Origin: Candidatus Thorarchaeota archaeon
Lineage (GTDB): Archaea; Asgardarchaeota; Thorarchaeia; Thorarchaeales; Thorarchaeaceae
NCBI GenBank assembly: GCA_046758445.1
Contig: JBHIAE010000075.1
Location: 1 to 11,855, forward strand
DNA: 11,855 nucleotides
Reading direction: 5' to 3'
The position numbers and the translations under genes were made by a program. Shown here piece after piece: positions 3,838 through 11,855 of this stretch. The notes beneath the pieces were generated by a model that did not search any database, was not told where the DNA came from, and saw only the letters and a program-made list of their open reading frames with translations. Each line of letters begins with the position of its first letter. Position 1 is the stretch's first letter.

Positions 3838-4254
3838 CTATACAAGCCACCTGTAAGTAATCTTCTTCTCATCTATGTGGTCGAATCCCAGCTTGAGAGT
3901 CATTCCAACCTCAGGCATGCCCATTAGGTTTGTAATGTGTGCCGTGAGCCTCAAGCCCGATGGGAACTCCCCGATGGCCACCACATATGGGGCCTTTGAG
4001 GATAGGCTCTCAGGCGCAAAGTCCACGACTACAAACGAAACTAACTTGGCTTCAGTTTCTGTAAACTCTTTGAACTCGGTCAGACTAAGGCATTTCTGAC
4101 AGTGCTGTCTTGGAGGAAGGAACTCAGCACTGCACGATGTGCAGACACTCTTCATTACTTTCTCCTGATCGAGGTAGCCGAGCCACTCGGAATACCAAGG
4201 TGTTATGGCCTTGTCCGTTGCGTATCCGAGATAGAGTTCTTTCTTCTCCGTCAC
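3838..4254 (-). CDS. DUF35-family Zn-ribbon + OB-fold acyl-CoA-binding protein (thiolase partner)
   Basis: Zn-ribbon CTSC...PPRQHCQKC followed by an OB-fold (APYVVAIGE...GLRLTAHI...EVGM). The GTG start overlaps the thiolase stop (TAGTG). Confidence 0.92.
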   Translation of the reverse strand: MTEKKELYLGYATDKAITPWYSEWLGYLDQEKVMKSVCTSCSAEFLPPRQHCQKCLSLTEFKEFTETEAKLVSFVVVDFAPESLSSKAPYVVAIGEFPSGLRLTAHITNLMGMPEVGMTLKLGFDHIDEKKITYRWLV

Positions 4255-5426
4255 TAGAATCCCCTCTCGAAGATGAAGACGTTGACGAACTGGCCACTCT
4301 GACCGACATTGTGGGCTAAGCCATATTGAACGTCCTTGATTTGACGAGATGAGTTCTCAGCCTCGCCTCGCATCTGTTTGAGTATCTCATATGTCATGGA
4401 AATTCCGGTTGCGCCAAGGGGATGACCCTTGCTCTTCAGACCGCCATCACAATTTACGGGGATTCGTCCGTCATGGTAGTTGTCCTTGTTTTCAACAATC
4501 TCAGGGCCCTTGCCTGGTTCGGCAAAGCCTAGGTCCTCGTAGGCGACCAACTCAGCAATGCTGAAACAGTCGTGTACCTGGGCCATGTTGACGTCATCTG
4601 GTCCTATGCCAGCCATCTCGTAGGCAGCCTTGCCCGCTCTCCTTGCCCCATGTATCGAGGTAAGGCTTGTACGGTCCTGAATCATCATCTCAGAGGCCCC
4701 GGCACCGATGCCTTTGATCCACATCGGCCTGTCGGTGAACTCCTTCACTCGGTCTTCAGCCGCAATTACAACAGCTGCAGCGCCATCAGTGATCAGGCTG
4801 CAATCGTATAGATTGAGCGGCCGTGCGATTGGCACAGCATTGTTAGCCTCCTCAAGTGATACCTCCTTTGGCAGGTGGGCTTTCGGATTCTGTGCACCGT
4901 AGTGGTGGGATTTCACCGAGATCTTAGATAGCACTTCATGTTCCATATTGTAGTCAGCCATGTAACGCGATGCCATCAACGCATAGAAAGCGGGGAAGCT
5001 AATTCCAAACGGATACTCCCAACGCATGTCGCCTGCTTGAGACATGTACTCAGTTGCGGTGGCTGAAGAAACCCTGTTCATCTGCTCGACACCGAGTACA
5101 AGCATTACATCATAGAGACCAGCGGAAACGAGACCCCATGCAGCCCTTAGAGAGGCAGTTCCTGTTGTGCATGCCGACTCTACACGCATGTGAGGCTTGT
5201 CCTGGAGGCCGAGGTAGTCAGCTATGAGCGCGGATCCTGCGCCTTGGCCAGAGAACTGTGATGCAGCATACGAGAGAACGGATGCATCAATCTTGTCCTG
5301 AGTAATACCCTCATCATAGATGGGCTTGTATGCCTCAGCACACAGCTCTCTCATGGTCGCATCGTATCGTTTTCCGAACTTGCTATGGCCGCCAGCTACG
5401 ACAGCTACTTTTCTTCCCAATTTCAT
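4254..5426 (-). CDS. Thiolase, SCP2-thiolase/archaeal type (acetyl-CoA C-acyltransferase)
   Basis: Motifs VESACTTG (nucleophilic Cys), DGAAA, VHDCF, GGLKSKGHPLGATG and the C-terminal HNVG. The start is the ATG at 5426 or the TTG at 5420 (GGAGG lies 8 nt before the TTG). The 5480 start in the ORF track is probably too long. Confidence 0.95.
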   Translation of the reverse strand: MKLGRKVAVVAGGHSKFGKRYDATMRELCAEAYKPIYDEGITQDKIDASVLSYAASQFSGQGAGSALIADYLGLQDKPHMRVESACTTGTASLRAAWGLVSAGLYDVMLVLGVEQMNRVSSATATEYMSQAGDMRWEYPFGISFPAFYALMASRYMADYNMEHEVLSKISVKSHHYGAQNPKAHLPKEVSLEEANNAVPIARPLNLYDCSLITDGAAAVVIAAEDRVKEFTDRPMWIKGIGAGASEMMIQDRTSLTSIHGARRAGKAAYEMAGIGPDDVNMAQVHDCFSIAELVAYEDLGFAEPGKGPEIVENKDNYHDGRIPVNCDGGLKSKGHPLGATGISMTYEILKQMRGEAENSSRQIKDVQYGLAHNVGQSGQFVNVFIFERGF

Positions 5427-5590
5427 TTCCTCCGTGGACGGAACCCACTCGATGTGTTTCAAGCAGGTTCTGACATTCACGTTACTATACTAGCGGAATC
5501 ACCGGTAACGTGGTCTTAAGGTTGACGATTAGTGGAGCAATCGATTCTTGAGGCATTATCTTATTGATTGTGGCAATCTAGACTGAAGCG

Positions 5591-5639: not shown

Positions 5640-6452
5640 CTACTCGCCAGTGAACTTGCCACGGCGTTTCTCAAGGACTGCAGATATCCCTTCAGCAAGG
5701 TCCTTTGTTTTGAAGCACTCGACTAAGGCTTTCACCTGATACTTGAGGTTATCTTTGTACTCTTCCTCGAACGCCATGTGAGTCGCTTTCTTCGCCAACC
5801 TCACTGCAACAGGAGCATTGCCACCAAGCTTTGCACCATACCACATCGCTTGACTCAGAAGTTCATCCTTTTTGACGACTTTACTGACAAGTCCCATGTC
5901 GAATGCTTCTTGGGCAGTGACCTGGCCCCCGGTGAGTATGAGTTCCATAGCTTTCCCAAGACCCACGATTCTTGGAAGTCTGACACAGCCACCCCAGCCT
6001 GGAATGAGTCCAAGACTTACCTCTGGAACCCCAATCTTTGCTTCATCTTCAGCTATTCTTATGTCACAGGCAAGTGCAATCTCTAGACCTCCAGCAAGAC
6101 ATAGACCATTGATCGCTGCAATAGTCGGCTTTGGGAAATCTGCCAGCTTGTTGATTATTCCCTGGCCTTCCTGAATAATACCTTCAACTTGATCGATGTC
6201 ATCGAGGAGTGACTGAGCCATCTTCAGATCTGCACCTGAACTGTATACCTTATCATGTGCTGACGCAAGCACCACCGATCGGACTTCTTTATCTTTCTCG
6301 GCCTCGTCCAGGGCATCACTGAGGTCTTGAAGAAACTGAGCGCTGATTGCGTTCAGAGCATCAAGTCGATTGAACTTAATTAGGGCCGTGTTCTTCACAG
6401 GTGAAAGAAAAGACCCTTCCTTACTGTATAGCATCGTTTCGTACTCTGGCAT
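5640..6452 (-). CDS. Enoyl-CoA hydratase/isomerase (crotonase family), about 270 aa
   Basis: Motifs FNRLDALNAI, YSSGADL, CLAGGLEIALACD and GVPEVSLG, so both catalytic Glu are present. C-terminus is EKRRGKFTGE. The ATG at 6452 (MPEYET) is preceded by AGGTG. Confidence 0.95.
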   Translation of the reverse strand: MPEYETMLYSKEGSFLSPVKNTALIKFNRLDALNAISAQFLQDLSDALDEAEKDKEVRSVVLASAHDKVYSSGADLKMAQSLLDDIDQVEGIIQEGQGIINKLADFPKPTIAAINGLCLAGGLEIALACDIRIAEDEAKIGVPEVSLGLIPGWGGCVRLPRIVGLGKAMELILTGGQVTAQEAFDMGLVSKVVKKDELLSQAMWYGAKLGGNAPVAVRLAKKATHMAFEEEYKDNLKYQVKALVECFKTKDLAEGISAVLEKRRGKFTGE

Positions 6453-6509
6453 TCCATGCACCTTTTGTTATACTATGCTTCAGAATGGAATATGTGCTGC
6501 TTAAAAATC

Positions 6510-6618: not shown

Positions 6619-7743
6619 TTACTTCAGCATCTTTGGAACGCTGTAACACTCGCCAAACTCCTCTTCGAGCTTTGAGATGTGTTCGCGGATCTTGTTCATC
6701 CCATACTTGTCTGCCATTTCGAACGGCCCGGCAGGCCAAGCCGCGCCCAGTTTCATGGCCATGTCAATGTCCTCTTTGTTTGCAATTCCGTCATCGACGA
6801 GAATCATAGCCTCCCGAATTCCAGCAATCTGAATCCTCTCTGCGATCCAATTCGGATCGGCACCCTTTGGTTCCTCAGGTTCTGCTTTGTCGGGCCCATA
6901 CTCATAGAAACCCTTCTTTGATTTCATTCCGATGGCACCAGAATCAACGAGATTCTTCAGCGTTTCAGGGGGTTTGAAGCAATCACCAATCTCTCGGTAG
7001 AGAGTAGACATGGCGTTGAAGGCTATGTCAAGACCCACAAAGTCACCCAAAGCGAATGGACCCATGGCGGCCTTCCCAATGCCAACCATTGCTGTGTCAA
7101 TCTCCTCCTTGGTGGCCTCTCCACGTTCGTACATTAGGAGCGACTCTCGCATGCCTGGCATGAGAAGACGATTGACAATAAAGCCGGGGCTGTTCTTGGC
7201 CAACACAGTGAGCTTGCCCTGCTTCTCACCAACTGCCTTGGCAACTGCAATCGTATCATCACTGGTCTTATCGCCGATTACAATCTCAAGGAGCTTCATG
7301 GCCGGAACTGGAGAGAAATAGTGCATACCAATGAACTTGTCAGGCCGGTTGGTGGCTGTTGCAAGTTCATCTATGCTTAGCGATGAAGTGTTGGAAGCCA
7401 GTATTGCGTGCGCCGGTGCGGCAGCATCGATCTTGGCGAACACCTCCTTCTTGACCTCCATGTTCTCGAATATGGCCTCAATCACAAGATCGGCGTCCTT
7501 GACTGCTTCCTCGGTGTCAACAGTGCCGTTGACTCTGCCCATTAGGCCTTCTGCATCCGTGATAGACATCTTCCCCTTGTCAATGCCAGTCATTACATCA
7601 TTTCGGATTCTCTCAATGCCCTTGTCCACTAACTCTTGATTGATGTCTACCATGGTGACTTCGTATCCATTCCACGCAGAAACGTAGGCGATGCCCGAAC
7701 CCATCAAACCAGAACCAATTACTGCGATCTTATTGATGCCCAT
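6619..7743 (-). CDS. 3-hydroxyacyl-CoA dehydrogenase with a duplicated C-terminal dimerisation domain, 374 aa
   Basis: Rossmann motif GSGLMGSGIA, then IEAIFE, ASNTSSLSI, the catalytic GMHYFSP...LLE and PGFIVNR. Two copies of the C-domain: EIDTAM...MGPFALGD and EDIDMAMKLGAAWPAGPFEMAD. SD is GGAGG. Confidence 0.95.
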   Translation of the reverse strand: MGINKIAVIGSGLMGSGIAYVSAWNGYEVTMVDINQELVDKGIERIRNDVMTGIDKGKMSITDAEGLMGRVNGTVDTEEAVKDADLVIEAIFENMEVKKEVFAKIDAAAPAHAILASNTSSLSIDELATATNRPDKFIGMHYFSPVPAMKLLEIVIGDKTSDDTIAVAKAVGEKQGKLTVLAKNSPGFIVNRLLMPGMRESLLMYERGEATKEEIDTAMVGIGKAAMGPFALGDFVGLDIAFNAMSTLYREIGDCFKPPETLKNLVDSGAIGMKSKKGFYEYGPDKAEPEEPKGADPNWIAERIQIAGIREAMILVDDGIANKEDIDMAMKLGAAWPAGPFEMADKYGMNKIREHISKLEEEFGECYSVPKMLK

Positions 7744-7754
7744 TTCAGACCCTC

Positions 7755-8117
7755 CTACATCGCACCCATAAGTGCTGCAAGAATGAGATTCGCCAGAGGA
7801 TCGCTCTCGTGGGCGTTACCTATGACCTCGAGACGGCCGTCTTTCATCGTGTCCTTGAAAGGCACCTCTCCAGTGAAGATTCCCAGAAGCGTTTCTGAAC
7901 TGGCCTTATAGATACAGTCTGGACTTGGGTAGATACCATCATGAATGGTCATGTCGTCCTTCGTGATTACCATGTATTGGGGACCTGCCTCAGTATAGAC
8001 CTGCAGAACCTTACCGTCATAAGGTCCGACCCAGTCCTCCAGCATCTTTCTGATGTCTTCCTTCTCCCTCACCTTAGCTATCAGGAACTTGAAGAACTCA
8101 TCAAGTTGTGTAGACAT
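7755..8117 (-). CDS. Stand-alone SCP2 (sterol carrier protein 2) domain lipid/acyl-CoA-binding protein, about 120 aa
   Basis: SCP2 C-terminal signature PDCIYKAS...LLGIFTGEVPFKDTMKDGRLEVIGN. The ATG at 8117 follows GGAGGAG (alternative GTG at 8126). Confidence 0.8.
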   Translation of the reverse strand: MSTQLDEFFKFLIAKVREKEDIRKMLEDWVGPYDGKVLQVYTEAGPQYMVITKDDMTIHDGIYPSPDCIYKASSETLLGIFTGEVPFKDTMKDGRLEVIGNAHESDPLANLILAALMGAM

Positions 8118-8122
8118 ACCAT

Positions 8123-8395
8123 TCACTCCTCCTTCGCCATCCAGTCATCGATGGCCTCCTGCATTGCTGATTCGATGGAAACTGTCCAAATGTTGCCTTT
8201 CCTCTCCTTGACTTTGTCAAGGAATTCGTCATACCGGTCTCCCCCCATCAGGACAACAATTCGACCTTTTCGGTCATCAATGAACGCCTGATGATACATC
8301 TTCTTGGACGTCCAATACTCATGTTCGATGTCGCCTTCTTTCAGTCGAGGGTAGAAGGGCCACTCACCGGTCGGATGCTTTCTGAATTTTGCCAA
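8123..8395 (-). CDS. Hypothetical 90-aa protein with a C-terminal ribbon-helix-helix-like domain
   Basis: TTG start with GGAGGT (8404-8409) 8 nt upstream, tightly packed in the operon. Residues 45-86 read strand (RIVVLM), helix (DRYDEFLDKVKERKG), helix (SIESAMQEAIDDWM), as in archaeal CopG/MetJ-like RHH proteins. This is pattern recognition only. Confidence 0.7.
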   Translation of the reverse strand: MAKFRKHPTGEWPFYPRLKEGDIEHEYWTSKKMYHQAFIDDRKGRIVVLMGGDRYDEFLDKVKERKGNIWTVSIESAMQEAIDDWMAKEE

Positions 8396-8659
8396 CTAAC
8401 TCAACCTCCATTTCTTGACGATGTCCCCCGTTGCCTCGAAGAAGCCTGGTCTGAACGGCCATTGACACACATAGCGGAATCCTTTGACCCCGTCTTTTTC
8501 ACCGCCTGACCATCGTCCAGTGTAGACTCTTGCACCCGTGTTGTGCACAAACTGCATGATCACACACTCGACAAAACCTTCAGGCTTCAGGTTCGCTTCG
8601 TCAGCCAATTCCTTGATCTTCTCAAGGGTTTCTTTGTTGAAATCTACTTCCAAGATCAT
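8396..8659 (-). CDS. Hypothetical 87-aa protein with an N-terminal ribbon-helix-helix-like domain
   Basis: The ATG at 8659 overlaps the nitroreductase stop (TGATG), so the 8701 start is unlikely. Residues 1-38 read strand (ILEVDF), helix (KETLEKIKELADEAN), helix (PEGFVECVIMQFV). Confidence 0.7.
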   Translation of the reverse strand: MILEVDFNKETLEKIKELADEANLKPEGFVECVIMQFVHNTGARVYTGRWSGGEKDGVKGFRYVCQWPFRPGFFEATGDIVKKWRLS

Positions 8660-9420
8660 CACCCCTTCCTGAAGGCCAAGCGCTTGTATGGCTTCCCCCA
8701 TCGTTCCTCGTACATCAGACCCTCCAAAGGTGGTCTGCTAGGTCCGAGAACACGTGGCGATATTCTCTTTCCAATACAGAACGCAGTCAAGGGCGTCCAA
8801 GTTGGCGGGATTCCCAATCTGTCACGAATCAACATTGCATGTCGCGGGTCCGAACAGACTAGAGCCTCATATCCGCAGCCATATCCTAGTTCTGTGGCAG
8901 TAAGCCACATGTTCTGAACGGCCATACCGGCCACTACTGACCCGAACAGTTCGTTCGGATACTGGTAACCCGCATCGTGCCACATTTCGCTTGCACAGAC
9001 GATAATCACGGCATCGCTCTTTTCGGGGTATCGGAAGAGCTCTCCATCCCTCAGCCTCGCGTACACAGCAGCTCGATATGGGTCGCTGATGAACCAGTTC
9101 CTGCCGCTTGTGAGCTCAAACGGAGCCCCGCCAAACGCAGTCTGGGCCATCTCCTGTGCAATGTCGGCCAGGAACACTTTCATGTCCTCATCATCCCTGA
9201 TTACAATGAAACGTATCATGAGCATGTTCTCCGGGCTCGGTGCATGTCGAGCCGCCTCCAGAATCATCTCAATGTGATCGTCAGGCAGCTTCTCGCCAGT
9301 GAATTCGCGGATGGACCGCCTATCTCGGATGAGCTGCAGAGACTGTAACTCCTCCGTAGTCTTGGCGACATCCTCGGTTTCCTCAGCAGCCTTCGACTTG
9401 CCATTAGCATCTGTTGCCAT
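8659..9420 (-). CDS. Nitroreductase-superfamily FMN-dependent oxidoreductase, 253 aa
   Basis: FMN-binding motifs IRDRRSIREF and ILEAARHAPS..N, then AGMAVQNMWLTATELGYG, LGIP...IG and SRPPLE. A strong GAGGTGA SD is present. Confidence 0.92.
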   Translation of the reverse strand: MATDANGKSKAAEETEDVAKTTEELQSLQLIRDRRSIREFTGEKLPDDHIEMILEAARHAPSPENMLMIRFIVIRDDEDMKVFLADIAQEMAQTAFGGAPFELTSGRNWFISDPYRAAVYARLRDGELFRYPEKSDAVIIVCASEMWHDAGYQYPNELFGSVVAGMAVQNMWLTATELGYGCGYEALVCSDPRHAMLIRDRLGIPPTWTPLTAFCIGKRISPRVLGPSRPPLEGLMYEERWGKPYKRLAFRKG

Positions 9421-9424
9421 TAAT

Positions 9425-9431
9425 TCACCTC
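9425..9431 (-). promoter_or_regulatory. Shine-Dalgarno site (GAGGTGA) of the nitroreductase
   Basis: The minus strand reads GAGGTGA-atta-ATG, a canonical archaeal SD. Confidence 0.8.
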
Positions 9432-9474
9432 ATGGTTGTTGTTTAACGCGGGAGTCGCAAACAACACGAGCCAT
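9432..9474. repeat. Imperfect inverted repeat abutting the nitroreductase SD
   Basis: ATGG..TGTTGTTT(9437-9444)..GCG-N5-CGC-AAACAACA(9459-9466)..CCAT. Confidence 0.7.
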
Positions 9475-9721
9475 AAATGTATTCGCTTTCGCATAGAGAG
9501 TCGGCACTTCGTCTAAGCTGTTAGAATGAAACATTGTATCTCTGGGAGGCCAGAGGTTCCGGCAGAGTGATGGACTATATACCACCGCATCTTGTCTAGA
9601 GAACATCCTCAATACTAGCCCAATATTGGCATGAATACACAAGCTGACTTATTCCTGCCTGCCCGAAACACAGATTGGAGTGCATCGCAATCTCCCGGTG
9701 GATGATGTGCTCCGTTCTTTC

Positions 9722-9772
9722 TTGAGTTGGAGCAAGAATGCTCCTTCTCAATCCCATTTTCATCGGATGAAA
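9722..9772. repeat. Two adjacent inverted repeats just downstream of the DRTGG gene (possible terminator/processing hairpins or operators)
   Basis: TTGAG-tt-GGAGCA-agaa-TGCTCC-tt-CTCAA (9722-9751) and TTTCATC-g-GATGAAA (9758-9772). Confidence 0.65.
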
Positions 9773-9779
9773 GCGTTCT

Positions 9780-10844
9780 TCACGGATCGAAGCCGGTAAG
9801 GTCGATTGCCTTTCCCACAATGTTCTGGACTGTTGCCACTCTCTTCTTGTTCTCAGGTGTCACGGTGCCTACCAGACTATCCACCTTTTGTGCTGTTGTG
9901 TAGGTATCGTGGGCAGTCATCATGATTGGGACCCCCAGGTCTTTTGCCCTAGAGAGCGTGCGAATATCAGGACCCATTCCACCGGTCAGGATCAGTAGAT
10001 TCGTGTCTGTTTCGAGGGCAGCTACGCAAATGTCAGACCGATCACCGCTCGTTATTACTGCCTTGTCCTTTGCACGTCTGAACCACTTCAAGGCATTCTC
10101 GGGAGCCATGCTGCCGACCATGAATCTATCAACGAGAAGATCCATTTGATCCTCTCCACTAATCATCTCTCCATTGAGAGCCTTGAGAATGTCCTTGACG
10201 GTCGGACTAAAGAGTTCTCTTCTCTGATAGACTACGCCTAGGAACTTGAGTCCACTGTCTTCAAAGAATGGTCTAATATGCTTCTCCACGGTAGTCTTTA
10301 GCATAGGGGGAACCATGTTCAATATCAGACCTATCTCCTCGATGCCGTGTTGCATGAAGAAATCTCTCTGTAGGAACACCTCATCTATAGCAGTGATATC
10401 AGGAAAGTTGACTAGACAGATGACCGAAGCGTCAAGCATCTTGGCAATCTGAGGAGTCGAGAGTTCGACATGAAGAAGATGCCAAGGTGCTCTCGCACCT
10501 TCTATTACAACGTAGTCATTGCCTTCTGCCACCTTGGCATAGCATTGTTGTATCCTCCCAATCAAAGCGTCGCGTCCGACGCGTATTAACTCGTCATAGC
10601 TTGATTTGGTTCTGACAATGGGACATATGCAGGATACCTCGGCATCTAGGCCAAGCACCTCCTTCATGACCGCCGCGTCTTCATCCACGTCAAGCGACTC
10701 CCTGCTATGCTCAAAGCTCTTGAAGCCAACTGGTTTGAAGTAGCCAACTTTGTGCCCCTTCTTCTGCAACTTGGCTGCAATTGCCAATGCTGCCATGGTC
10801 TTGCCTGAGAGAGTTCCTCCGCTGATCACGATATTCTTAGTCAT
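9780..10844 (-). CDS. Phosphotransacetylase N-terminal-like protein (BioD-like P-loop + DRTGG domain, no catalytic Pta domain), about 354 aa
   Basis: P-loop GGTLSGKT, VGYFKPVG and VVIEGA. The DRTGG domain shows VGSM, VITSGDRSD, LILTGG and HDTY. The ATG at 10844 (MTKNIV) lies 1 nt after the upstream stop and follows GGAGGAG, so the 10937 start is too long. Confidence 0.88.
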   Translation of the reverse strand: MTKNIVISGGTLSGKTMAALAIAAKLQKKGHKVGYFKPVGFKSFEHSRESLDVDEDAAVMKEVLGLDAEVSCICPIVRTKSSYDELIRVGRDALIGRIQQCYAKVAEGNDYVVIEGARAPWHLLHVELSTPQIAKMLDASVICLVNFPDITAIDEVFLQRDFFMQHGIEEIGLILNMVPPMLKTTVEKHIRPFFEDSGLKFLGVVYQRRELFSPTVKDILKALNGEMISGEDQMDLLVDRFMVGSMAPENALKWFRRAKDKAVITSGDRSDICVAALETDTNLLILTGGMGPDIRTLSRAKDLGVPIMMTAHDTYTTAQKVDSLVGTVTPENKKRVATVQNIVGKAIDLTGFDP

Positions 10845-10845
10845 C

Positions 10846-11855
10846 CTACTCTCCTCCAATTGTAATCTTAACATCCACCGCAGACACGCCTTTTCCCCTA
10901 ACATAAGCGAATGCCGGGTTGATATCCAACTCAACAATCTCCTCGAAGTCAGTGACTAGTTGAGAGATCCTCAATATGGTTTCCTCTATAGCCGCAATGT
11001 CACTTGGCTCCTCTCCTCTTACGCCTCCGAGGATGGTCCCCATCTTTGTTTCTCCAATCAGCTCTGATGCGTTTCTTCGAGTCATCGGTGCAAGGCGGAA
11101 AGCCACGTCTTTCACGTAGTTGACGAATATTCCGCCGGCACCGAACATTACCAGCGGTCCAAATTGAATGTCACGAGAGCATCCGATTATGAGCTCCTTG
11201 CCTTTCTCAACCATCTCTTGTACATCGACGCCGTAGATCACAGCCCTAGGCACATGTGTACGTACACTATCAAGAATCTGGAGAAACGCATCTTCTACTT
11301 CTTCTGAATTCTTCAGACCCAAGTGAATACCACCAATGTCGGTCTTGTGCACGATGGCCGGACTCGAGATCTTGAGTACTACAGGATAGCCAAGCTCGTC
11401 TGCGATCTTCTTCGCTTCCTCGGTACTCGTAGCCAGACCTATACGGGCGACAGGAATACCGTATGCCTCCGCGATCTGGTGAGCCTCACTCCCCAGGAGA
11501 ACACGACGTTCGTCGCTTCTCACTCCTTGGATGATTTTCTCAATCCTCTTACGGTCGACCTTGAATCTAGGTGGTTTCTCATCCTTCAGGGAGTCCCTCA
11601 ACACCATGTATCGATATAGCTCTGCGATGGCATTCACTGCACGTCCAGGGAAGTCGAATACAGGGATTCCACCCTCGTTGAGCACCTTTCGGGGATTGGT
11701 CATGGAGTGACCTCCCATGAACACTGCAAGAAGTGGTTTGTGGGGGTACTTTTTGTGTGATTCTACCAGTATCTGTGCAGTCTCGTCTTCCTTCGTCATA
11801 GCTTGAGGAGTCAGTAGCACGAGAAGACTGTCGACATTTTCATCACTTAACGCCG
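10846..11855 (-). CDS. ADP-forming acetyl/acyl-CoA synthetase (fused alpha-beta ACD), C-terminal part; 5'-truncated by the window edge
   Basis: The frame is open to the window end (ALSDENVDSLLVLLTPQ). The ligase-like flavodoxin domain (KPLLAVFMGG, GIPVFDFP) is followed by an ATP-grasp (GYPVVLKISSP, IVHKTDIGG with the conserved His, VQEM, ELIIG..RD.QFGPLVMFGAGG, ELDINP). There is no C-terminal GNAT domain. Confidence 0.92.
   Translation of the reverse strand, partial: ALSDENVDSLLVLLTPQAMTKEDETAQILVESHKKYPHKPLLAVFMGGHSMTNPRKVLNEGGIPVFDFPGRAVNAIAELYRYMVLRDSLKDEKPPRFKVDRKRIEKIIQGVRSDERRVLLGSEAHQIAEAYGIPVARIGLATSTEEAKKIADELGYPVVLKISSPAIVHKTDIGGIHLGLKNSEEVEDAFLQILDSVRTHVPRAVIYGVDVQEMVEKGKELIIGCSRDIQFGPLVMFGAGGIFVNYVKDVAFRLAPMTRRNASELIGETKMGTILGGVRGEEPSDIAAIEETILRISQLVTDFEEIVELDINPAFAYVRGKGVSAVDVKITIGGE

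Follow-up and report, generated by a model that had tools for sequence, protein, structure and literature searches.

Two small proteins with predicted ribbon-helix-helix modules, encoded split or fused beside a nitroreductase-fold gene in Asgard archaea

Two adjacent small genes, here called A and B, were analysed in a stretch of 11,855 nt from a Thorarchaeota metagenome-assembled genome (MAG; 3.25 Mb, 49% G+C, 93% complete; contig JBHIAE010000075.1, hereafter the window). They lie directly downstream of a gene for a nitroreductase-fold flavin mononucleotide (FMN) protein, NTR. A and B are real, translationally coupled genes, and their products belong to a protein family that keeps company with NTR wherever we could follow it. 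We see about an even chance that A-B forms the accessory subunit(s) of an undescribed, Asgard-specific nitroreductase-fold FMN enzyme acting on coenzyme A (CoA) thioesters or lipids. The ribbon-helix-helix (RHH) fold element predicted in both proteins is known; the A-B family, its mirror-image architecture, its split/fused dimorphism and its obligate nitroreductase link are new, and no description of the NTR-A-B cassette was found in the searchable literature. The core of the locus consists of the following features:

8659-9420, minus strand: NTR, nitroreductase-fold FMN protein (Pfam PF00881, E 1e-23)
8396-8659, minus strand: gene A, 87 amino acids (aa), with an RHH module, a beta-hairpin and a QWPFRP..GDI..W tail
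8405-8409, minus strand: GGAGG Shine-Dalgarno (SD) site for B, within the Trp-Arg codons of A and 9 nt upstream of the TTG
8123-8395, minus strand: gene B, 90 aa, TTG start, with an EWPFYP..GDI..W head, a helix and an RHH module
7755-8117, minus strand: SCP2 lipid-binding protein (Pfam PF02036, E 3.3e-5)

The genes are tightly interlocked. The ATG of A (8659) overlaps the NTR stop in a TGATG, and the TAG stop of A (8396-8398) is followed directly, and in the same frame, by the TTG start of B (8395-8393), which itself ends at TGA 8123-8125. For SCP2, ATG 8117 is favoured as the start over GTG 8126. To learn about the A/B junction, we compared 60 distinct loci. In the split orthologues the start codon of B is TTG or ATG and its position is constant, all three relative frames occur, the stop codon is TAA, TAG or TGA, and stop and start either overlap or abut; a TGGAGG Shine-Dalgarno sequence is present in every one of them. 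In many Thorarchaeota, A and B are one protein of 175-180 aa (fused forms as short as 168 aa were also found at this stage), in which the linker ...KKW-KSGGKK-FR... (TGGAAA-TCC-GGN-GGN, encoding W-K-S-G-G) takes the place of the stop and the Shine-Dalgarno site. The window's own genus includes both forms. The junction (window 8393-8410) can be seen as an evolutionary toggle between TGGAGG, whose Trp-Arg codons double as the Shine-Dalgarno site, plus a stop, and the fused linker.

This fusion and fission indicates that A and B act as one unit with 1:1 stoichiometry. A preliminary description, made from the DNA of the window alone, had taken A and B for partners, a view that independent occurrence of their homologues would have refuted. 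They were never found apart and are naturally fused in many genomes, so that the notion of a single acting unit is well founded. A lies directly upstream of B in 21 of 21 cassettes from 20 distant Asgard loci, some of these loci being the second, third or fourth paralogous copy in a genome.

Judging from sequence searches, the family is rare and almost confined to Asgard archaea. A phmmer search with the read-through A-B chain matched no more than 25 representative clusters in a set of 1.84 billion proteins; some are A-like or B-like proteins on their own, and two are natural fusions (P0005, 175 aa, 70% identity; P0010, 166 aa, 31% identity). With a profile of B, 208 clusters were detected among 5.8 billion proteins, all unnamed or 'hypothetical' and none with a Pfam domain; their named sources are Thorarchaeota, Hermodarchaeota, Promethearchaeota and one Bathyarchaeia-labelled MAG. 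Of 400 species genomes of the phylum, 113 have B; for the window's own family, the Thorarchaeaceae, the count is 73 of 85.

The strongest association of the pair is with its upstream neighbour. Counting cases with distinct genes, NTR adjoins A-B in all 77 that could be tested, and B is followed by SCP2 in 77 of 80. The complete order NTR-A-B-SCP2, followed by genes for 3-hydroxyacyl-CoA dehydrogenase (HCDH), enoyl-CoA hydratase (ECH), thiolase and a DUF35 protein, was found in all Thorarchaeota loci and in one Heimdallarchaeota locus at 36-55% identity. The three divergent cassettes that lack SCP2 keep the NTR-A-B core; B is followed by a family-III CoA-transferase in one (L096), by an ADP-forming CoA ligase alpha-type protein in the second (L098) and by unrelated genes in the third (L100). 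A-B thus trails the NTR gene into very different neighbourhoods and into every paralogous cassette. Furthermore, the distance matrices of NTR and of A+B are correlated over 17 cassettes (r 0.87, Mantel p ~2e-4, a statistic inflated by relatedness), and paralogs from the same genome cluster by cassette type and not with each other, for NTR and A+B alike. This grouping indicates that the cassette was duplicated and diverged as a unit. The NTR subfamily is likewise Asgard-restricted among its named matches.

In one Asgard lineage (genome G125, locus L095) the cassette NTR is a tandem double-domain protein of 471 and 492 aa, and in one of its two cassettes the genes are permuted to A-B-SCP2-NTR. 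The corresponding regions are:

L095:3248-4660: double-domain NTR region
L095:10634-12109: double-domain NTR region

The NTR protein keeps the RRSxR FMN-phosphate motif and resembles the BluB, FbiB-C and IYD type, to which Foldseek matched it; AlbA (8uc3) is a weak sequence match of the window NTR (E 4e-4). Its C-terminal tail, RxxGPSRxPLEGxxYxExWGxPYxRxAF, is conserved in 28 of 28 cassette NTRs, down to 33% overall identity. In the AlphaFold2 (AF2) model, the C-terminal ~35 residues (window 8659-8760) have a predicted local distance difference test score (pLDDT) below 50. The WGxPY of this tail is a third Trp..Pro-aromatic motif, beside those of A and B.

To investigate the fold of A and B, we modelled the window pair as a single chain with AF2, with the TAG as Gly and an 80-row alignment. 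The model reached a mean pLDDT of 87.3 and a predicted TM-score (pTM) of 0.50. In fused numbering, in which A, the TAG and B are read as one chain of 178 aa, the predicted elements are:

Residues 1-8 (A): extended
Residues 9-21 and 26-39 (A): helices
Residues 44-55 and 58-66 (A): beta-hairpin
Residues 67-77 (A): WPF loop
Residues 78-84 (A): helix
Residues 89-113 (B): extended head with WPF, pLDDT 54-73
Residues 114-129 (B): helix
Residues 130-139 (B): extended RKGRIVVLM
Residues 140-154 and 159-177 (B): helices

Projected onto the window, the modules and motif segments are located as follows:

8540-8659, minus strand: RHH module of A, residues 1-40 (AF2, VIA-align and PDB profile matches)
8462-8530, minus strand: beta-hairpin of A, residues 44-66 (GGRVYTGxW ... 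KGxRYVVQ), the AF2 strands 44-55 and 58-66
8408-8482, minus strand: A tail with the WPF motif, residues 60-84 (W 92%, P 98% conserved)
8126-8269, minus strand: RHH module of B, B residues 43-90, with RKGR plus the ribbon RIVVLM and two helices (AF2, VIA-align)
8312-8389, minus strand: B head with the WPF motif, B residues 3-28 (W 84%, second P 86%, D 90% conserved)

In a VIA-align comparison against 48,161 PDB representatives, residues 1-44 and 131-178 matched RHH proteins separately, and RHH proteins topped the list for both (Z 4.5-5.3, root-mean-square deviation (rmsd) 0.9-2.4 Å, 39-46 residues). The A module superposed on the RHH domain of PutA over 43 of 44 residues (Z 5.3, rmsd 1.8 Å) and on VapB12 with an rmsd of 0.9 Å (Z 5.1), with further matches to AmrZ, Arc and NikR. 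For the B module, the matches were StnY and NikR (both Z 4.9), MazE6 (Z 4.7) and RelB (Z 4.5), and TacA and CopA were also among the RHH-type matches. A Z-score near 5 is modest in absolute terms but close to the ceiling for a 45-residue domain. Foldseek with the whole A-B model against the PDB gave only meaningless matches to elongated chains.

The sequence signals point in the same direction. A profile of A aligned in register with ORF56 (E 0.013) and CopG (E 0.16), and a profile of B matched ParG (E 0.95); beyond such weak RHH matches, the PDB profile searches for solved relatives of A and B found nothing. The window proteins themselves have no RHH Pfam match, and neither belongs to a Pfam or NCBIfam family. 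Among 80 family members scanned against Pfam, all hits were sub-threshold: RHH_1 in four (best E 0.0062), NikA-like in three and RelB in one. 56B_RHH was also matched below threshold in individual members. In the ESM Atlas no match reached 0.9; among named clusters, RHH_3, Arc and HicB came closest, at 0.86. Taken together, the fold matches and the weak sequence signals support the RHH assignment at the level of the fold, outside every curated RHH sequence family. The prediction that each protein carries an RHH-fold module, as the preliminary description had suggested from RHH-like sequence, is thereby supported.

Beside the RHH module, each protein carries a Trp-Pro (WP) segment, in the A tail GFRYVCQWPFRPGFFEATGDIVKKW and in the B head KFRKHPTGEWPFYPRLKEGDIEHEYW. 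The open reading frames were confirmed at the coordinates and with the sequences first reported for A and B, and a BLASTP comparison recovered the pattern that had been noticed in both. It yielded two blocks of similarity and no others: QWPFRPGFFEATGDI / EWPFYPRLKE--GDI (E 0.017) and the strand-helix start (E 0.2); at the sequence level each would be marginal if taken alone. The picture becomes clearer in the 80-row alignment, on which motif conservation was scored and which includes members at 20-30% identity. In A, W is conserved in 92% of the rows, P in 98%, F in 64% and the Asp of GD in 57%; in B, the values are 84% for W, 59% for P (L in 27%), 70% for Y, 86% for the second P, 90% for D and 76% for I. 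The hairpin glycines of A are even more constant (G48 100%, G60 97%). Since the Trp-Pro core persists across this alignment, the motif is a real conserved feature of both families. Of the longer pattern first proposed, the WP core thus holds in both, GDI is well conserved only in B, and the trailing Trp only among close relatives. The opposite order of the modules (RHH then WPF in A, WPF then RHH in B) is kept in every homologue.

The suggestion that A and B are circularly permuted paralogs was not supported by sequence. In a profile-profile comparison of the two families with hhalign only eight columns aligned, the WP block QWPFxPGF / EWPGYPxL, at a probability of 2% and an E-value of 0.023. 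Paralogy by circular permutation may therefore be regarded as an idea and not as a finding. A second and weaker resemblance between the two may lie in a K-G-(x)-R-h-V-V pattern common to the second hairpin strand of A (KGFRYVCQW, 8482-8456) and the B ribbon (RKGRIVVLM, 8269-8243).

Based on these data, we propose that A and B each make up half of a single functional unit, which would serve as the small accessory subunit(s) of NTR. Nitroreductases are obligate dimers. The RHH modules would act as protein-protein (beta-ribbon) oligomerisation elements rather than as DNA readers, while the Trp-Pro-aromatic segments of A and B, perhaps together with the ExWGxPY tail of NTR, would be hydrophobic anchors that dock A-B on the two-fold-symmetric NTR dimer near the FMN sites and complete or gate the active site, in the way that AlbB serves AlbA. 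That the WP segments and the NTR C-tail may interlock on the NTR dimer is suggested by two features of the models, namely that the conserved NTR tail is modelled as disordered and that the WP head of B has low pLDDT. Low confidence of this kind, in the B head and in a conserved tail, would be typical of segments that become ordered on binding. SCP2, the usual fourth component, could present the substrate or deliver the acyl chain.

The chemistry can be considered in the light of the surrounding operon. The remaining features of the window are:

10846-11820, minus strand: ADP-forming acyl-CoA synthetase domain (ATP-grasp_5)
9780-10937, minus strand: DRTGG/AAA_26 protein
9421-9779, minus strand: 360-nt leader/promoter region ahead of NTR, conserved in a 10-locus Thorarchaeota alignment
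6619-7743, minus strand: HCDH
5640-6461, minus strand: ECH
4254-5480, minus strand: thiolase
3838-4254, minus strand: DUF35 OB-fold partner of thiolase

The operon has the hydratase, the 3-hydroxyacyl-CoA dehydrogenase and the thiolase/DUF35 pair, and an acyl-CoA dehydrogenase is absent from the Pfam-annotated genes of the window. Nitroreductase-fold enzymes can perform alpha,beta-dehydrogenation or ene-reduction, and the C-domain of FbiB reportedly reduces dehydro-F420-0. The reaction is probably an alpha,beta-dehydrogenation or an ene-reduction of acyl-CoA. The most explicit form of the proposal, an Asgard-specific multi-subunit FMN acyl-CoA dehydrogenase/enoyl-CoA reductase made of NTR, A and B (and SCP2), in which the RHH modules are non-DNA assembly elements and the Trp-Pro anchors complete the active site, is more speculative, and we consider it rather unlikely.

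Several observations weigh against A-B as an enzyme subunit. Six canonical acyl-CoA dehydrogenase genes are present elsewhere in the genome, and a substitute for the flavin step is therefore not strictly needed; the proposed enzyme may instead act on a special substrate or work reductively. In the single-chain model A is not confidently packed against B, as the pTM shows. We also modelled NTR, A and B in a single chain, using an orthologue (L058) in which one TAA lies between NTR and a natural A-B fusion, with an alignment of five triple and five NTR-A read-through rows. This model (pLDDT 79.6, lower over A-B; pTM 0.53) matched ordinary nitroreductases in Foldseek, showed no confident docking of A-B and contained NTR as a single chain and not as a dimer. 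Only A-B fusions turned up; neither protein was found joined to NTR or SCP2. Finally, RHH domains are almost always DNA-binding, a basic RKGR cluster is conserved ahead of the B ribbon, and the leader at 9421-9779 contains long invariant blocks across ten Thorarchaeota loci, a conservation so unusual that operator sites are possible.

These last points lead to the alternative that A-B is a heteromeric RHH autoregulator of the operon (single-chain when fused), similar to PutA or NikR, whose hairpin/WPF part might act as a sensor, either for an acyl-CoA or for NTR in a given redox or occupancy state. We regard it as unlikely, if by no means negligible. It would account for the RHH fold predicted at both ends, for the weak profile matches to CopG, ORF56, ParG, RelB and NikA, and for the conserved RKGR-ribbon of B, which resembles the N-terminal R-x-T-x-T ribbons of NikR/CopG-type proteins. 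The leader would fit as well. Besides the block ATAAGTCA.CTTGT.T.T.CA.GCCAATA.TGGGT, it has a conserved hairpin, GGAGCG...CGCTCC, with two compensatory changes, and a promoter-like GAAAGC.AATACATTTATG ~65 nt ahead of the NTR ATG; Rfam gave no match for 9421-9779. The leader might have a regulatory role or encode a small RNA. However, the properties of the modules speak against a DNA reader. With a median net charge of -4.5 (range -10 to +2), the RHH module of A is acidic, and its outward ribbon positions 4, 6 and 8 are E/D, N/E/D and D/E, a combination that argues against DNA binding. The B module has a median charge of +1.5 and a ribbon face of R133 (93%), V and L/T. By the standard of a DNA-reading ribbon face, with a polar or basic face and a neutral-to-basic domain, A clearly fails and B is ambiguous. 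Moreover, the ribbon segments (residues 2-7 and 133-138) are extended and remain unpaired in the single-chain model (pTM 0.50), which thus shows neither a heterodimeric nor an intramolecular ribbon. The genes sit mid-operon between enzyme genes, coupled 1:1 by stop/start overlaps, and not at the operon head, and the pair stays with NTR in every paralogous cassette, and also at loci that share neither the surrounding genes nor the upstream regions. Welded to the NTR gene in every genome examined, A-B looks more like enzyme subunits than like classic DNA-binding regulators. Of the two functions offered in the preliminary description, a structural subunit of the flavoenzyme fits the data better than a regulator.

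The same linkage evidence (fusion, adjacency and co-diversification) is shared by a further explanation, namely that A-B is an assembly or flavinylation chaperone, or a non-catalytic adaptor that tethers NTR to SCP2, the membrane or the beta-oxidation enzymes. The homologues of A-B are without a conserved Cys/His cofactor motif, and SCP2 is dispensable in three of 80 loci, NTR never, both of which would suit such a role. In contrast, translational coupling and fusion imply a 1:1 stoichiometry that is commoner for stable subunits than for chaperones, and we rate this option as less probable than an autoregulator. Very improbable is the idea that the in-frame TAG is recoded by pyrrolysine or read-through to give one protein of 178 aa. 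A and B are indeed in frame with the TAG alone between them, and fused orthologues exist, but no PylS was found in the 93%-complete genome, just a sub-threshold PylD-like match. Aragorn found no tRNA with a CUA anticodon, a weak check given that it listed 16 tRNAs in all. In the split orthologues, the variation in stop type and frame marks the window TAG as an ordinary stop, and the GGAGG Shine-Dalgarno site with its TTG/ATG start is conserved in the split forms only. Recoding was accordingly rejected. The count of only 16 tRNAs, obtained without the intron mode of aragorn, may reflect archaeal tRNAs that contain introns or are split, or tRNAs missing from the assembly.

Whatever its function, A-B is an unannotated protein family whose public copies, as far as found, are all 'hypothetical' and without a Pfam or NCBIfam model. 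If A and B are enzyme subunits, the RHH fold gains a documented role that does not involve DNA, and Asgard fatty-acid or lipid metabolism, a central matter in models of eukaryogenesis, gains an unrecognised flavoenzyme. Should the acyl-CoA dehydrogenase/enoyl-CoA reductase proposal be true, the closest archaeal relatives of eukaryotes would use an enzyme of new architecture for the redox step of beta-oxidation, or of its reversal. As a regulator, A-B would stand out as an RHH factor, heteromeric or single-chain, that forms part of an enzyme cassette. Under either reading, the natural split and fused forms provide a ready experimental handle.

A-B can be compared with several known systems. In the ubiquinone metabolon, UbiJ (an SCP2 protein) and UbiK presumably offer a parallel, as an SCP2 protein and a small helical partner that assist flavoenzymes on a hydrophobic substrate; they have no sequence or fold relationship to A-B, and the enzyme class and substrates differ. 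Within the RHH superfamily (CopG/Arc/MetJ, with PutA, NikR and VapB/RelB/MazE), the likeness is that both end modules are predicted as strand-helix-helix and superpose over the whole domain, and that the G-x-T turn before helix 2 (AGLTPEG) is found in most fused and distant A proteins (ANLKPEG in the window A). A and B differ from this superfamily in that they reach no RHH Pfam cut-off, in the joining of the modules to a new hairpin/WP-motif segment in opposite order, in the acidic module and ribbon face of A, and in being embedded in, and co-inherited with, an enzyme cassette. The fused orthologues can presumably be likened to single-chain Arc and other covalently linked RHH dimers, as they hold two RHH modules ~90 residues apart, which is ample for an intramolecular pair; in contrast to these, the A-B ribbons are unpaired in the AF2 model and the two modules are not detectably paralogous.

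A functional precedent may be seen in the cyclodipeptide oxidase AlbAB, in which the nitroreductase-fold AlbA is combined with AlbB, an 11-kDa helical protein that contributes residues to the FMN site and is needed for alpha,beta-dehydrogenation (PMC11055893). The two systems differ in the partner: AlbB is a four-helix-bundle homodimer without an RHH, whereas A and B are predicted to combine RHH modules with a hairpin, and two distinct small proteins (or one fusion) plus SCP2 are involved here. Searches of the PDB with the profiles of A and B returned no AlbB chain at E-values up to 10. What the systems have in common is a nitroreductase-fold FMN protein encoded beside a partner of ~10 kDa, by analogy with which A-B might likewise be needed for activity. 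Furthermore, the alpha,beta-dehydrogenation next to a carbonyl that is carried out by AlbAB is the very step missing from the window operon.

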